Part shown: positions 10,295-60,520 of the stretch, one piece after another
Position numbering within the stretch: the first letter of the stretch is position 1
How the letters are laid out: every line of letters begins with the position of its first letter
Position numbers and translations under genes: made by a program
Source: an uncultured bacterium
Lineage (GTDB): Bacteria > Planctomycetota > DG-23 > CBDVDV01
DNA: 64,000 nucleotides
Assembly: GCA_965372835.1 (NCBI GenBank)
Contig: CBDVDV010000001.1
Coordinates: forward strand, 4,593 to 68,592
Direction: 5' to 3'
The notes under the pieces: generated by a model
Database searches by the model: none
Told to the model about the DNA's origin: nothing
Seen by the model: the letters and a program-made list of their open reading frames with translations, nothing else

Positions 10295-10433
10295 AGGTTG
10301 GCTTCACGTGGCCCGCCGGTTGGCGGGTGCGTGAAGCATAGCCCGAACGTGGGTGACCCTGGTGTCCCCCCCACGCTGGGGCACCCACTCGGGCGCATTG
10401 TCCTTCGGGTCCGCTGGAACTGACCCGCCGGCC

Positions 10434-10456
10434 GGTCCTACGACTCGTATGAGCGG
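10434..10456. repeat. Copy 1 of 23-nt intergenic motif GGTCCTACGACTCGTATGAGCGG
   Basis: 20/23 identical to copies at 39381-39403 and 60460-60482. Confidence 0.6.
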
Positions 10457-21790: not shown

Positions 21791-22063
21791 CCGGTCGTGC
21801 TAAGCGGGGAGGTAGCGGTGCCCTGTACCCGCAAACCGCTAAAGCGGGGCCGAATTCCTTCCCGAGGGCTCTGCTTCCTCGGACGTATCTTCGGCACGTG
21901 GTGATGAAGGTCGGGTCCTATGCAACAGGGCGGCGTGAACCTGGTCAGGCCTTGACGGGAGCAGCCATAAGCGCATGTCCCTGTGTGCCGTAGGGTCGCC
22001 TGGCTGGAGCCAACGACTGCAGAGCGTCCCTGGAAGGGGGTTCGACGGAAGGTGCACGACCGG
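21791..22063 (+). ncRNA. ffs: Signal recognition particle RNA, long Bacillus-type form with Alu domain
   Basis: GUGCUAAGCGGGGAGGUAGCGGUGCCCUGUACC...GGCCGAAU Alu-domain segment, domain IV GGUCAGG..GGAGCAGCCAUAAG..GUGUGCCGUAGGG, and a terminal helix CCGGUCGUGC/GCACGACCGG. Matches my recollection of B. subtilis scRNA over most of its length. Sits upstream of dnaX as in Firmicutes. Confidence 0.85.
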
Positions 22064-39380: not shown

Positions 39381-39403
39381 GGTCGTGCCACTCGTATGAG
39401 CGG
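39381..39403. repeat. Copy 2 of 23-nt intergenic motif GGTCGTGCCACTCGTATGAGCGG
   Basis: Lies between ORF 37880-39298 and ORF 39538-42780. Followed by GGAAC and an AT-richer leader. Confidence 0.6.
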
Positions 39404-48296: not shown

Positions 48297-48803
48297 GTGA
48301 GGAACCTCTGGGCGCCGTGGCGGATGGAGTATGTCGGCGACCTCACCGAGGACGGCTGCTTCCTGTGCCGCGCCTGGGAAAGCACGGAGGACGACGTCAA
48401 CCTGGTGGTCTGGCGGGGCCAGCGGACGTTTGTCATCTTCAACCGCTTCCCCTATTCCAACGGCCACCTCATGGTGGCCACGGCCGAACACGGGCGCATG
48501 CTGAGCGACCTCAGCGATGAGGAACTGGTGGAACTGATGCGGGCGACGGCACGCATGCAGCGACTGCTGGAACGGGTGGTGCGCGCGCACGGTTTCAACA
48601 TCGGGCTGAACCTGGGTCGGTCGGCCGGTGCCGGCCTCACTGACCACCTCCACCTCCACATCGTGCCTCGCTGGGAGGGAGATACCAACTTCATGCCCGT
48701 CCTGGCTGACGTGAAGGTCATTCCCCAGGGACTCCAGGAACTGTACCGGGGGCTGAAGTCAGCGCTCGTACGAGCCGCACCTCCGCAGGATGAGGACCGA
48801 TGA
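48297..48803 (+). CDS. HIT-family nucleotide hydrolase/transferase
   Basis: Histidine triad HLHLHIVPR. Confidence 0.8.
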   Translation: MRNLWAPWRMEYVGDLTEDGCFLCRAWESTEDDVNLVVWRGQRTFVIFNRFPYSNGHLMVATAEHGRMLSDLSDEELVELMRATARMQRLLERVVRAHGFNIGLNLGRSAGAGLTDHLHLHIVPRWEGDTNFMPVLADVKVIPQGLQELYRGLKSALVRAAPPQDEDR

Positions 48804-55177: not shown

Positions 55178-56308
55178 TCACATCCGTCCTGCGGGGGGCC
55201 GGCCTGCCGAGCGAGACGCGGAAGCGACGCTCGCGACCCGTGCACCGGAGGCGGCCGCTGGTTGAGGAGCGGCCAAGGCCTGCTGAGTGAGTTTGAGGGC
55301 CCCGGAGACGATGCGCAGTCGGACCCCGTAGTTGGTGTGGTAGCCCTTCTGGCGCGTCGTGTACTGTCGATACACGACCACTTCCACATCGTCCTCGATA
55401 CTGTACTCCACGACTTCCTGGCCCACCCGGCTGACACTGCCCAGGCGCTGGCGTAGGCCGAAGCCCTGCCGCGCTAACAGCACACAGTAGAGGTAGGGAT
55501 ACGCCCGGCCCACGCGGTTGATGGACAGTTGGATCTGGAGGCCAAGGAACTCCTCCGGGGCCTCGTCGAAACGCACCTGGAGCCGCGCGTCCCGGGGCAG
55601 CTGGCGCTCCTGCTCGGGCTTGGCGAGTCCCCTCTTCTTCTTGGATGAGGCCTGGCGGGTGACGCTGACCTCCATCTGGGGGATGAGGGTAAGGCCCGAT
55701 GGAGAAAGTCCGCGGATGCACTGCTCGGCTTCCTGGAGGCACTTGACCTTGATCACCAGTTCCTCGGGTTTCCAGGTTGTCCGCAAGCCGCTCAGCCAGA
55801 TGGGCACGGACAGAGCCGCTGCATCCAGCAGCCACATCTTCTGAGCCGTGTTGGCTCTCCCCTCGGCAAAGTCAGCAAACACCCAGAGGGGCCCGAGCGG
55901 CCCAAACCGGCCCATGTCCCCCAGCCACGCAGCGACCAACAGGACCACGTAGACCGCTGCCAGGAGACTGAGAAGTCCCGGCCAGGAAGCCAGGTTGAAG
56001 GGGCTGCGGGCCCATCGGCGGGACCGCTCGGCCGTATCCAGCACTCCTTGAAACTCGTCCAGCGTAACCTGCTCCCACCTGCGCTTGCCCCGCAAACGAG
56101 GCTTGTTCCGAATCCCCCGGCTGGCTCCCAAGAGCGCCCCGGCCAGCACCAGCACCCAGCCCACCCACACCGAGATCAGCACCTGGAGCATCAAACCGAG
56201 GACCAGACAGGCGGTGATGACGGCCAGCCTCACCCGGTAGTCGAGGCCGCCGATGAGAAAGCGCACCTCGTACTTGTCTTCACGTTCTGGTTGGTAGAAC
56301 CTGACCAT
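55178..56308 (-). CDS. Hypothetical membrane protein, third gene of the Cys-repeat / radical SAM operon
   Basis: N-terminal TM helices (LAVITACLVLGLMLQVLISVWVGWVLVLAGALLG). Start overlaps the radical SAM stop by 29 nt. Large C-terminal soluble part. Confidence 0.65.
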   Translation of the reverse strand: MVRFYQPEREDKYEVRFLIGGLDYRVRLAVITACLVLGLMLQVLISVWVGWVLVLAGALLGASRGIRNKPRLRGKRRWEQVTLDEFQGVLDTAERSRRWARSPFNLASWPGLLSLLAAVYVVLLVAAWLGDMGRFGPLGPLWVFADFAEGRANTAQKMWLLDAAALSVPIWLSGLRTTWKPEELVIKVKCLQEAEQCIRGLSPSGLTLIPQMEVSVTRQASSKKKRGLAKPEQERQLPRDARLQVRFDEAPEEFLGLQIQLSINRVGRAYPYLYCVLLARQGFGLRQRLGSVSRVGQEVVEYSIEDDVEVVVYRQYTTRQKGYHTNYGVRLRIVSGALKLTQQALAAPQPAAASGARVASVASASRSAGRPPAGRM

Positions 56309-57686
56309 GCGCCTTCACTTCGAGCAGTTCACCGTACCCCACGATCTTCCAGTAGATGGGACAGGCGCCATCGCACATCTCGAATAACTCGCACGATTGG
56401 CAGACTTCGTGAGCGTACCGTTTCTCCTGGTAAAACCGGGCCCGCTCACCTCCCCAGACCTCTTCGAAGGGCTGCGTGAGCAGGTTCCCCACCGGCTGGG
56501 TCAGGCTGGAGCAGGGAAGGACGTCGCCGTTGGGGGCCACCGAGAGGAGGCCGTCGCACGCTGCGCACCCCTTGTTCCCCAGGCCTTCGGCCACGGGGTT
56601 GAAGATGCAGTAGGGCGTCGGCGAGTACCAGAGGAACTGCACCCCAACCCTTCGTGCCGCGCGCTTCACTTCCCGGACCACCTCCCCTATCTCGCTGTAA
56701 CTGACCCAGAGTTCCTCGGCTCCCGGCCCTGCTGAGCCACAGGGGATGACCATGTTCATCGAGAAGCGGTCCAGCCCCAACCCCTTCATCAGCGCGGGCA
56801 GTTCCACCAACTCGTCCAGGTTAGCCCTTGTGGCAGTCGTGTTGGTGTGGACGGCGACGCCGGCCCGGCGAAGGTGCTTGACCCCCCTAAGGCTGGCCTC
56901 GAAGGAACCCGGCACCTGAGTAAGACCGTCGTGCGTCGCCGCGGTCACCCCTTCCAGGCTGACCTGGGCACTGTCCAGGCCTGCCCCGCGCAGGCCCTGA
57001 GCCGCCTGAGCGTCGATTAGGGTCCCGTTGGTGATGAGGTTGACTCGCAGCCCCGCCGCCTTGGCGTGGCCGACCAGTTCGACGATGTCGTCGCGCAGCA
57101 TGGGCTCCCCGCCGGTGAAACTGGTGGAGGGTACCTGGGCTTGGTGACGGATGATGTCGAAGATGCGTTTCACCTGGGCCGTGGACATCTCCTCGGTCTC
57201 ATCGTCCTGATGACAACTGCAGGAGGCGTAGCAGAAGAGGCAGGAGAGGTTGCAGCGATAGGTCACAGCCACCTCGCTCAGGACGGGAAGCAGGTTGTAG
57301 GGTCGGCGGAAGGGCACCGTCTCCACGGCCCGCCTCCCCTCCCCTTCTCCCAGACAGCCCACCAGGAGCGCCCGCAGGTCGCAGAAGAAGTGGTGGACGT
57401 CGGCGCACCTGGCCGGGTCGTCGGCGTGAGGCCCGAGGACGTCGAAGACGCTTTCGCCGTCGAGCATCCGCCCCAGGAGTTCGAGGCCGGTACGGTTCAG
57501 TTTGTAGGCCTGGTTGGGAAGGAGAATGAGCAGTTCGTCGGCCTGGCGCACGGCGACGTAAGAGCGGATCTGCCTCACGAACTCATCCGTCCAGCCGATG
57601 TCCACGTGCTCGGCGGCGGGGCTGGGCGTGGAGACCGACGACAGCGGACACCCGTCCCTCACCCCTGATTCCGGTCGCCCGCCCAT
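56280..57686 (-). CDS. Radical SAM enzyme with N-terminal PqqD-like RRE and C-terminal SPASM domain (peptide/protein-modifying maturase)
   Basis: CNLSCLFCY (Cx3Cx2C), GGEP glycine-rich SAM motif, and a SPASM Cys cluster (CGSAG...CIFNP...GCAACDG...LPC...CQSCELFEMCDGAC). N-terminal LLILLPNQAYKLNRTGLELLGRMLDGESV is PqqD/RRE-like. ATG at 57686 overlaps the upstream stop as TGATG; the track's longer ORF to 57770 overlaps the repeat region. Confidence 0.85.
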   Translation of the reverse strand: MGGRPESGVRDGCPLSSVSTPSPAAEHVDIGWTDEFVRQIRSYVAVRQADELLILLPNQAYKLNRTGLELLGRMLDGESVFDVLGPHADDPARCADVHHFFCDLRALLVGCLGEGEGRRAVETVPFRRPYNLLPVLSEVAVTYRCNLSCLFCYASCSCHQDDETEEMSTAQVKRIFDIIRHQAQVPSTSFTGGEPMLRDDIVELVGHAKAAGLRVNLITNGTLIDAQAAQGLRGAGLDSAQVSLEGVTAATHDGLTQVPGSFEASLRGVKHLRRAGVAVHTNTTATRANLDELVELPALMKGLGLDRFSMNMVIPCGSAGPGAEELWVSYSEIGEVVREVKRAARRVGVQFLWYSPTPYCIFNPVAEGLGNKGCAACDGLLSVAPNGDVLPCSSLTQPVGNLLTQPFEEVWGGERARFYQEKRYAHEVCQSCELFEMCDGACPIYWKIVGYGELLEVKAHGQVLPTRT

Positions 57687-59386
57687 CAGTGCGCTCCCCC
57701 GCTCACGCACGCCCCGTGGCAGGCCGAGTGACACGCTGAGTGGCACGCCGAGTGACAGGCACTGTGACACGCTGAGTGACAGGCGTCGTGGCAGGCGGTG
57801 TGGACATAGCAGGCGCTGTGGCAGGCATCGGATTTGATGAAAGCAGCGTAGTTGGTGGCCGCTGCGGGCTGGTGTTCCTCGACGGAGCGTCGCATGCGAT
57901 CGATGCGGTCTCCCCGGTCGTAGTCGTCGTTGTAGTAGTGGTGATAGTAGTACCCGTAGCGGCGGGGATAGCGCTCACCCCAGGCGTACTCATGCTCCTC
58001 GTCCATGTTCTCGGGCGTGGTGGAGCGGGCCAGGGCGGCGAAGAGCCCGCTGTAGTACTTCTTGGTGGCGGGCAGGTCGGAGTCCCAGCACTTGCGCTGG
58101 ACGCCGTCGGATAGTTCGGCGTAGAGCCCGTTGAGCCGCCTCTGGGAGAGGGTGCCGTCGGCCTGGACGGTGTCGAGGAAGAGTTTCTCGTAGGAGTTTC
58201 GGGGTTGGTAGCGAAGGGAGGTGCGCTCGATGGTGAGGGGATCCTCGCTACGGATGTAGAGGGCCCCCCGCTGCTCCAGGTCGGCGCAGATGAGGCAGGT
58301 GATGGTGCTCAAGGGGATGTCCAAGAGCAGCCCCGCCTCGATGACGTTCAGGCGCGCGATCTTCCCCTTCTTGCGGAAGGTGGCCACCTTGATTTTGGGT
58401 GGCACCCAGATGTTGCTGTCCCAGCGTACCTCCTCCAGCGCTTCGCCCGCTTGCTGCAAAGACCCGTGCTTGAGACCCATGGCCACCACGGCAGCCACCA
58501 CCAGCACCACCACCGCCAGCACGGCCGCCAAAGGAATCCCCTTGCCCAGTTTCTTGACCGCCCCGGGGATTCGGCCTTTCTCGATTCTCGCCCCTACACC
58601 GACCGCTTCCTCGGCGCGGGTGCTGCCGAGCGTGGGGAAATACCTTGCGGCGATGTACTGCTGGACGAGGAAGTGGAACTCCTTCGGTGCCGACTTCTTG
58701 TGCAAGAGGATGGTGAGCCAGTTCTTGCCCTGGTAGGGCGTGGCCCGGTAGTCGATCTTGTACTGCTCGTTCATGAACTTCTCAGTGCGGAAGGTGACCT
58801 CCTCGAGGAACTCGGGTGCGACCTTGAGCACGTTCCCTTCGGCCGCCACGCGTTCGGGCGGCACCTCGATGGGGTAGTGGACGTAGACGGTGTAGTGCTC
58901 CAGCGCTTCCGCCCGTTGTACGGGTGCCCAACCCAGGACGACCAGTTGACCCAGGCCCGGGGCCTCCGTCAGTCCCAGGTTCTTACTGGCCACCAGGTCG
59001 GCGGCATAGTGGACGATGTAGGTGGTTTCCCCTGGCCCGAAGGCCTGTTTTCCGGCCAGCACTACGTCGTACTTACGGTCCGAGACGTGGGCGATGGAGA
59101 GGGGGTAACGGCGCCCACCGGCTTGGGCGTGGGAGGTCTCGAAGTTGAAGACCGGGGTCTCCTGCATCCCTTCCAGGTAGAAGCCGTGCATCTTGCCGCT
59201 GGTGACGGTCCAGCGCAATTTGTAGACGATGTCGGCCTTGCCGTCCTGGCGCAGCGACAGATCCACCTCCACCCAATGCAGTTTCGCGGAGACGGCTGCC
59301 TGGGCCGTCGGCGCCAGGACCCAGAGGAGCGCCACGACCAGGGCCGGCAGTAGTAGTCGACGGACTTCAAGCGCTCGCCTGAACAC
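57686..59386 (-). CDS. Signal-peptide/TM protein (DUF2207-like architecture) ending in a tandem (Ala-Cys-His-Ser)n repeat; candidate substrate of the adjacent radical SAM enzyme
   Basis: Signal peptide MFRRALEVRRLLLPALVVALLWVLAPTAQA. TM helix IPLAAVLAVVVLVVAAVVAMGL. Tyr/His-rich segment. C-terminal SDACHSACYVHTACHDACHSACHSACHSACHSACHSACHGACVSGGAH. Confidence 0.8.
   Translation of the reverse strand: MFRRALEVRRLLLPALVVALLWVLAPTAQAAVSAKLHWVEVDLSLRQDGKADIVYKLRWTVTSGKMHGFYLEGMQETPVFNFETSHAQAGGRRYPLSIAHVSDRKYDVVLAGKQAFGPGETTYIVHYAADLVASKNLGLTEAPGLGQLVVLGWAPVQRAEALEHYTVYVHYPIEVPPERVAAEGNVLKVAPEFLEEVTFRTEKFMNEQYKIDYRATPYQGKNWLTILLHKKSAPKEFHFLVQQYIAARYFPTLGSTRAEEAVGVGARIEKGRIPGAVKKLGKGIPLAAVLAVVVLVVAAVVAMGLKHGSLQQAGEALEEVRWDSNIWVPPKIKVATFRKKGKIARLNVIEAGLLLDIPLSTITCLICADLEQRGALYIRSEDPLTIERTSLRYQPRNSYEKLFLDTVQADGTLSQRRLNGLYAELSDGVQRKCWDSDLPATKKYYSGLFAALARSTTPENMDEEHEYAWGERYPRRYGYYYHHYYNDDYDRGDRIDRMRRSVEEHQPAAATNYAAFIKSDACHSACYVHTACHDACHSACHSACHSACHSACHSACHGACVSGGAH
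57700..57832 (-). repeat. Imperfect tandem 12-nt repeats encoding (ACHS)n
   Basis: Plus-strand units such as gagtgacaggca / ctgtgacacgct / gagtgacaggcg / tcgtggcaggcg. Synonymous variation between units keeps the peptide repeat exact. Confidence 0.8.
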
Positions 59387-60006: not shown

Positions 60007-60444
60007 TCAAGGCTGCTCAGCCCGGGCGACACCGGTTTTTGTCTGGAAGACCAGGAGGTAAGGCACCGCGGGGCGTCCTTCGGTGTCCCTGAACGCGTCG
60101 TGCTTCTGGTAATTGAACCAGATGACGTACGTTTTCCCGGCCTCCAGTTTGACCGGCGCGACACAGGTTTTCTTATCCGTCAGGTAGCGGATGTCTCCCG
60201 TGATCTTGGGGAAGGTCTCGTCGGACATCTGGACCCACGCCCACATCTGCTCGGTCATCATCTCCTTGCTGAAGGTGACGCAGATCTCCTTCGTCGCCGG
60301 GTCAACCTGGGTATCCCCTGCCTGTGGCACCGTCTTCACGACAACCGGCGGCATGGTTTTCACCGTGATCTCGCCGCGCTCCGCCGCCATCATACTCGCC
60401 AGCAGAGCGCCCACCAACATCACTGGCAGACTGATGCGCTTCAT
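60007..60444 (-). CDS. Hypothetical secreted protein (146 aa)
   Basis: Signal peptide MKRISLPVMLVGALLASMMAA. RBS GGGGGAGG. Start at 60444. Confidence 0.55.
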   Translation of the reverse strand: MKRISLPVMLVGALLASMMAAERGEITVKTMPPVVVKTVPQAGDTQVDPATKEICVTFSKEMMTEQMWAWVQMSDETFPKITGDIRYLTDKKTCVAPVKLEAGKTYVIWFNYQKHDAFRDTEGRPAVPYLLVFQTKTGVARAEQP

Positions 60445-60459
60445 GACCTCCCCCTTTCT

Positions 60460-60482
60460 GGTCGTGCGACTCGTATGAGCGA
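60460..60482. repeat. Copy 3 of 23-nt intergenic motif GGTCGTGCGACTCGTATGAGCGA
   Basis: Lies 16 nt from the start codon of minus-strand gene 60007-60444 (opposite orientation relative to the adjacent gene). Followed by a perfect hairpin GAACGTG-TTC-CACGTTC. Confidence 0.6.
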
Positions 60483-60520
60483 TAACGGTTGCGGAACGTG
60501 TTCCACGTTCACCACCGGAC

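Follow-up and report, generated by a model that had tools for sequence, protein, structure and literature searches.

An imperfect palindrome, probably REP-like, in intergenic spacers of uncultured Planctomycetota, present or absent as an 18-nt block

Three copies of an imperfect palindrome of about 21 to 23 nt, (C)GGTCGTACGA-C-TCGTATGAGC(G), lie in intergenic spacers of the stretch of planctomycete DNA analyzed here (64,000 nt, referred to as the window). We consider it likely that they belong to a REP-like family that is dispersed in planctomycete spacers and mobile, as judged from its presence and absence among relatives. Since one copy is present or absent between close relatives as an exact block of 18 nt, the motif is best read as a REP-type miniature repeat and not as a gene switch. 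The repeat is real, palindromic and extragenic; it is biased towards the 3' ends of genes, oriented independently of transcription, capable of forming dimers, nested in other repeats, precisely polymorphic and patchy across lineages. It is probably a non-autonomous mobile hairpin element. An earlier reading made from the letters of this stretch alone (the sequence-only reading) had offered, among other possibilities, the remnant of a miniature repeat element, and this proved essentially right: the repeat is polymorphic for presence and absence, occurs in inverted dimers and lies nested in other repeats. The novelty lies in a REP-like family, previously undescribed, in a poorly known lineage of uncultured planctomycetes. 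Such repeats break assemblies, and they are usable as strain markers.

Copies in the window and in other genomes

The window is an ordinary housekeeping stretch, in which GC3-based gene calls and Pfam searches placed clpX, serA, pdxA, ksgA, accC, pfk, pilZ, hslVU, metG and ccmEF, together with the SRP RNA, dnaX-ybaB-recR, rpoN, pyrD, a serpin gene, dnaE and others. A window-wide repeat search yielded the motif family (D12) as the only convincing interspersed repeat. The pattern GGTCSTRCSACTCGTATGAGCG matched exactly three times (10434-10455, 39381-39402 and 60460-60481), always on the plus strand. No fourth match with up to three mismatches was found in the 64 kb, and 100 dinucleotide-preserving shuffles of the window gave no match at all. 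When the search was relaxed to the 13-nt core with two mismatches, the only addition was a dubious palindrome within a gene at 48763. The three recurring intergenic copies described by the sequence-only reading were therefore recovered, and its claim of an occurrence above chance held as well (three copies versus none expected). Its figure of 20/23 identical positions agrees with the pairwise values, which range from 20 to 22 of 23; the base following GAGCG is G in copies 1 and 2 and A in copy 3. When the copies were aligned with 80 nt on either side, the common block spanned about 23 nt and the flanks were unrelated, so that a long MITE is not involved. By the gene calls, intergenic DNA makes up about 7.5% of the window; with all three copies intergenic, the chance probability is about 5e-4.

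Copy 1 bears the subfamily flanks ACCCGCCGGCC...GGTG, and neither a sigma-70 promoter nor an intrinsic terminator was found around it. The same spacer holds, after the terminator hairpin of pfk (10300-10340), a long GC-rich hairpin (Table 1) that is conserved in relatives with 82-98% PFK identity, the remaining spacer being divergent. Its consensus fold has 21 pairs, most of them invariant; U·G alternates with C-G in two, and one is changed on both sides (U-A to C-G). No Rfam family matched this hairpin, possibly a small RNA or an element of the 3' UTR.

Copy 3 is located 39 nt past the stop codon of the PALP gene (60521) and 15-16 nt upstream of the ATG (60444) of its downstream neighbor, a minus-strand gene for a secreted Big_5 protein with a signal peptide; the short distance to this start codon had been correctly reported. 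The 7-bp hairpin previously seen after copy 3 is also there. It is kept in two relatives, L009 and L035, mostly through wobble-compatible changes (with one A·C mismatch in L009), and is probably a terminator-like hairpin at the 3' end of the PALP gene, separate from the repeat.

Table 1. Coordinates of the repeat copies and of other features mentioned in the text (window positions unless a contig is named)
Feature	Position	Strand	Description
Copy 1	10434..10456	+	GGTCCTACGACTCGTATGAGCGG; 140 nt past pfk stop (10294), 171 nt before PilZ ORF (10627)
Copy 2	39381..39403	+	GGTCGTGCCACTCGTATGAGCGG; 83 nt past 472-aa ORF (stop 39298), 135 nt before 1080-aa DUF4175 gene (39538)
18-nt indel block of copy 2	39384-39401	+	From the filled/empty comparison with L031/L032
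Copy 3	60460..60482	+	GGTCGTGCGACTCGTATGAGCGA; between two minus-strand genes
Hairpin GAACGTG-TTC-CACGTTC	60494..60510		Beside copy 3 and no other copy; not part of the repeat
Long hairpin downstream of pfk	10341-10396		About 56 nt, GC-rich; GCCCGA..GGGTG.CCCYGGTGTCCCCCCCAYGCYGGGGCACCC.CTCGGGC
SRP RNA	21795-22059		Large (Bacillus-type) bacterial SRP RNA, 265 nt, 196.8 bits; between cyclophilin-type PPIase gene and dnaX
Tandem repeat	57707-57790		About seven 12-nt units (GTGRCASGCNGA) where the minus-strand ORFs 56280-57770 and 57686-59386 overlap; translated from the coding strand, they would give a repeat of four residues that contains Cys/His
Big_5 gene	60007-60444	-	L036-L038 (80-85%) have no such gene between PALP and the following gene
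Motif in an ORF	L010 1597-1636		Last 13 codons; tail behind a complete FAA-hydrolase domain
Motif in an ORF	L006 7755-7778		Distal part of a Wzz-like ORF
REP-like units, SDBT01	L019 323-495; L023 5956-6080		CGTC-ATTGCGAGG...CGAAGCAAT, variable central segment; contigs of 39-51% GC

Twenty-seven independent loci were obtained from public genomes and metagenomes, almost all from uncultured Planctomycetota. Eight came from a scan of 185,579 species genomes, six of them in the Planctomycetota MAG CAZIBA01, one in another Planctomycetota MAG and one in a MAG labelled Armatimonadetes. Metagenomes added 17 contigs, of which eight belong to a single sample, Ga0114921, that also contains an orthologue of copy 3. 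In terms of copies per source, there are three in the 64 kb of the window, at least seven further distinct loci in Ga0114921 and six exact matches in CAZIBA01. The carrier contigs span 39-70% GC, and the apparent invariance of the external copies is partly imposed by the search pattern, which fixed 19 of 22 bases. The viral contigs scanned gave no match, a plasmid collection gave chance-level partial matches only (E >= 0.9), and a literature search with the sequence string returned only unrelated primer matches.

According to the gene calls and Pfam, the external copies follow closely on stop codons or lie in the spacers of convergent (L001, L003 and L017) or co-directional genes, in either orientation relative to transcription, and copies are biased towards gene 3' ends. 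As in REPs, the placement is extragenic, between unidirectional or convergent genes, with rare copies in the C-terminal part of ORFs (L010 and L006). In both of these ORFs the motif is in frame on the reverse strand and encodes AHTSRTT; the repeat can thus lengthen or break coding regions. Inverted dimers occur at 2 of the 27 loci, head-to-head and abutting in L015, tail-to-tail and 13 nt apart in L012, and fold as long hairpins (z-scores of -3.7 and -2.7). The rest are singletons.

The longer repeats that enclose the motif differ from genome to genome. A ACCCGCCGGCC-motif-GGTG setting is common to copy 1 and seven other loci (L011, L012, L015, L017, L021, L025 and L026); in CAZIBA01 the motif lies within a unit of about 85 nt, and in two low-GC contigs of SDBT01 it occupies the center of CGTC-ATTGC...GCAAT REP-like units. 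The central segment of the SDBT01 units holds the motif in two of them and a CCCCGCCATTGGCGGGG hairpin in another. The CAZIBA01 spacers of L001, L003 and L004 are mosaics of other short repeat modules, such as GACCGGCCGTGGCACAC and GGCAAGGGGCTTAAGCCCCTTGTC, and resemble the BIME-like architecture of Escherichia coli. No free copies of the host palindrome CCCRCCGGCCGGYGGG were found in the examined loci, and the window contains only generic GC-rich terminator-like palindromes.

Filled and empty sites in relatives

Relatives of graded identity and conserved synteny were found through homologues of the flanking proteins. In L031 (GCA_054773015.1) and L032, the 472-aa neighbor of copy 2 is 94% identical, the synteny is the same and the spacer is collinear, with about 95% identity. 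The site is empty in both relatives, where it reads CCGGAGGAACTGCG, versus CCGGT[CGTGCCACTCGTATGAGC]GGAACTGCG in the window; in a wider context, the relatives have ...GCCCGTACGTCCGGAGGAACTGCGAAAC... and the window has ...GCCCGTACGTCCGGT[CGTGCCACTCGTATGAGC]GGAACTGCGAAAC.... The alleles differ by an exact indel of 18 nt and an adjacent T/A difference at the junction, and no target-site duplication is seen in this comparison. Copy 2 therefore displays what is generally expected of a mobile element, namely, presence and absence at orthologous sites in close relatives. A block of 18 nt with the same boundaries also distinguishes two repeat units located 121 nt apart in L001 (CAZIBA01), GGGCGAAGGT[CTTGCGACTCGTATGAGC]GGAACCGGCCGTGGCACA versus GGGCGAAGGTGGAACCGGCCGTGGCACA, or in a shorter view GGGCGAAGGT[CTTGCGACTCGTATGAGC]GGAACC versus GGGCGAAGGTGGAACC. 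With such clean filled and empty alleles, the limits of so small a repeat can be read directly and exactly, which is rare, and once complete genomes exist the alleles would serve as a concrete substrate in identifying the responsible enzyme.

The other two copies are common only to relatives with 96-98% identity (L026, L009 and L035). An identical copy 1 is found in the same place in L026, whose PFK is 98% identical, and the pfk-pilZ spacers of L027 to L030, relatives at 80-87% identity (87%, 82% and 80%), lack it. Similarly, copy 3 is present in the 96% relatives L009 and L035 and absent in the 80-85% relatives L036 to L038, where the Big_5 gene is likewise absent; this gene is a lineage-specific gain or loss, with copy 3 at its 5' edge. 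About 84 kb of DNA from relatives with 71-94% identity contained no copies versus 3.9 expected at the density of the window (Poisson P = 0.02). In the 80-87% relatives the spacers have diverged too far, or are organized too differently, for precise empty sites of copies 1 and 3 to be defined, and the outgroup spacers of copy 2 do not align.

Precise gain or loss beside a short conserved flank, without target-site duplication, is what a Y1 HUH enzyme that acts on single-stranded DNA should leave behind. What comes or goes is the exact 18-nt block CNTRCSACTCGTATGAGC, landing without target-site duplication at G-rich junctions (GGT^GG, often GG^GGAAC) and frequently inside other small palindromes or repeats. 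A transposase of the HUH/Y1 class, IS200/IS605-RAYT type, working by single-strand "peel-and-paste", would yield such a pattern, and from it we infer an HUH/RAYT-type enzyme and a single-stranded DNA mechanism. The 18-nt event at copy 2 may have been an insertion rather than an excision, or the reverse. No RAYT/Y1 or other transposase was recognized by Pfam in 46 of the approximately 52 genes of the window, a crude regular-expression scan for an HUH...Y motif over all examined DNA gave no match, and the surroundings of the copies, in the window as in the examined loci, yielded no RAYT or TnpA gene.

Two features are unusual, the very small size of the indel unit (18 nt) and the occurrence of one identical 22-mer in contigs that differ widely in GC; they raise the minority possibility of a compact element that spreads horizontally. 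In its full form, such an element would be an exceptionally small piece of mobile DNA, a lone 18-nt hairpin block that moves without a REPIN doublet, inserts without duplication at GG^GG junctions inside palindromes or repeats, and is near-invariant in several uncultured Planctomycetota lineages and in two or more contig sets that look unrelated (39-56% GC). We regard this as rather unlikely. If true, a lone 18-nt mover would point to a single-strand DNA enzyme that is dedicated to it, has been transferred horizontally and recognizes a very compact site.

Fold of the motif and alternative readings

The motif is an imperfect 21-bp palindrome centered on C11, and its reverse complement, when shifted by 1 nt, matches it at 16 or 17 of 22 positions depending on the copy (5 or 6 mismatches). 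The description "not a clean palindrome" given by the sequence-only reading was correct as to the imperfection, but it undersold the 21-bp dyad. One strand can form a 7-bp hairpin, with UCGURCG and CGUAUGA as arms and ACU as a 3-nt loop, G·U (or G·T) pairs included. The predicted folding energy of the RNA was -8.8 kcal/mol for the forward strand (z about -2.3) and -3.0 for the reverse strand, which folds poorly on account of the two G·U pairs in the stem. In single-stranded DNA the hairpin is weak, being no more stable than shuffled sequence. A short imperfect palindrome with a stem-loop, as in REPs, is thus found in the dyad and its forward-strand RNA hairpin.

Among the 27 independent copies, the variable positions (5, 7 and 9) all fall within the left arm. 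Position 7 is A or G, either of which pairs with U15, and position 9 is G in 26 of the copies. Position 5 is G in 15 copies, A in 2, C in 9 and T in 1; G and A keep the pairing with U, and C leaves a C·U mismatch inside the stem, so that a third of the copies have an internal mismatch.

These folding data bear on the possibility that the motif is an RNA-level element, in which the forward hairpin would serve as an exonuclease barrier, a processing site or an attenuator in 3' UTRs and intercistronic spacers, and copies would be spread by recombination or gene conversion without a dedicated transposase. The fold of the forward strand and not of the reverse strand, the A/G and G/A variation in the left arm that keeps pairing through G·U, and the enrichment of copies just downstream of genes are all consistent with it, and REPs have been reported to stabilize mRNA 3' ends (PMC3733652). 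However, about half of the copies, window copy 3 included, are antisense to the preceding gene, so that the stable hairpin would be missing from the transcript. The C·U mismatches disrupt the stem in 9 of 27 copies, there is no U-tract, and thus the motif is not an intrinsic terminator, and the precise 18-nt indel is left unexplained. Nor does any Rfam family match: a search of the window and 14 loci, at the gathering threshold and at permissive E-values, gave no match overlapping any copy. We therefore consider an RNA-level element unlikely as the explanation of the family, even if the forward-strand hairpin of a REP-like repeat may have a host effect, such as 3'-end mRNA stabilization or attenuation.

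We judge it quite unlikely that the motif serves as an operator to which a dimeric protein binds (a transcription factor, or a nucleoid or chromosome-organization protein of the parS, matS or SlmA-site kind), with the 21-bp dyad kept by selection for binding. The motif has clear dyad symmetry with a conserved asymmetry and a very constant sequence across genomes of 39-70% GC (in part a product of the search pattern), and all window copies are on the same strand, copies 1 and 2 upstream (171 and 135 nt) of plus-strand genes and copy 3 15 nt upstream of a minus-strand start codon. Nevertheless, copies also occur in convergent spacers or directly at stop codons, places in which a promoter is not expected, and the neighboring genes have no function in common (PilZ, DUF4175, Big_5 protein, FAA hydrolase and others). 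Longer dispersed repeats enclose the motif, which is also found in abutting inverted dimers. A regulatory site would be expected at a fixed upstream position conserved at orthologous promoters, and the motif is absent from the orthologous spacers of relatives with 80-94% identity, with a clean empty allele at copy 2. The operator, nucleoid-site or promoter reading put forward from the sequence alone is thus not supported, in view of the copies between convergent genes or close behind stop codons, the absence from orthologous promoters in the 80-87% relatives and the empty site in the 94% relative. The GGAAC that had been noted after copy 2 as reminiscent of an ECF-type -35 element is indeed present, but it already exists in the empty allele and is therefore target DNA, not part of the repeat. 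This removes a tempting regulatory annotation of the PilZ, DUF4175 and Big_5 genes, the motif being neither an operator nor an ECF promoter.

It is very improbable that the motif is the decayed end (terminal inverted repeat) or a solo remnant of a larger insertion sequence or MITE: the repeats are dispersed, some at contig ends of fragmented MAGs (L008), and inverted pairs occur at two loci, but these dimers abut or are only 13 nt apart, no inverted pair brackets a segment of IS or MITE size in the 274 kb of examined DNA, no transposase is adjacent, and the polymorphic unit is only 18 nt, with no target-site duplication at the empty site. Instead of the terminal inverted repeats and target-site duplication of a MITE, what is found is a unit of 18-23 nt with no internal segment. 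Two further candidates were discarded. For a small ORF starting at the ATG of the motif, the downstream frames are of unrelated lengths and the variable positions are not codon-spaced. For the 5' end of a group II intron (GUGYG) or a hammerhead-like core, judged from the sequence, copy 1 has CTACG and nothing downstream is conserved.

Comparison with known repeat systems

REP-like families without a tag are already known, and in Pseudomonas the REPIN doublet is regarded as the moving unit. REPs are regarded as non-autonomous mobile DNA (Bertels and Rainey 2011, PMC3116915). They are located mainly between unidirectional and convergent genes, with intragenic exceptions (Di Nocera et al. 2013, PMC3733652), and are sometimes found inserted in small palindromes or interleaved with repeats, as described for GTAG-23 of T. 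roseum, GTAG-15 of A. variabilis and Neisseria; tagged REPs are already on record from the PVC superphylum, Planctomycetes among them (PMC3733652).

The REP-like repeat described here resembles these elements (20-40 bp) in being short, imperfectly palindromic, dispersed and extragenic in either orientation, with inverted dimers of both kinds (head-to-head and tail-to-tail) and intragenic or C-terminal copies as occasional forms, and with nesting in palindromes or repeats. It differs in its short stem (7 bp, G·T pairs included) with a loop of 3 nt, in consisting mostly of singletons with an apparently modest copy number, and in the recurrence of the same 22-mer in contigs of very different GC. 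Unlike the GTAG and CGTC superfamilies of REPs, it has GGTC at the 5' end of all copies; GTAG is found only on the reverse strand of the CCTAC variants, in an internal position, and CGTC is absent from the motif. The absence of the tag, the predominance of singletons, the short hairpin and the mere six exact matches in CAZIBA01 all count against the REP reading.

Like the REPIN-RAYT and IS200/IS605 systems, the motif is a hairpin unit gained or lost precisely, without target-site duplication and beside a short conserved flank. Its unit, however, is a single block of 18 nt and not a doublet of about 100 nt or an insertion sequence, and inverted doublets, which predominate among REPINs, occur at only 2 of the 27 loci. 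In place of the strict tetranucleotide target of the IS200/IS605 type, GGA^GG is found at the empty site and GGT^GG at filled sites. In the spacers of CAZIBA01 and SDBT01 the motif is one module among several, as in the BIMEs of E. coli and the dRS3/CGTC-1 clusters of Neisseria, but the module sequences are unrelated to those, and the window copies stand alone.

In general, the family fits the broad definition of REPs. Since it lacks the GTAG/CGTC tag and consists mostly of singletons, it is kept out of these superfamilies and is not filed as a typical REPIN-RAYT system.
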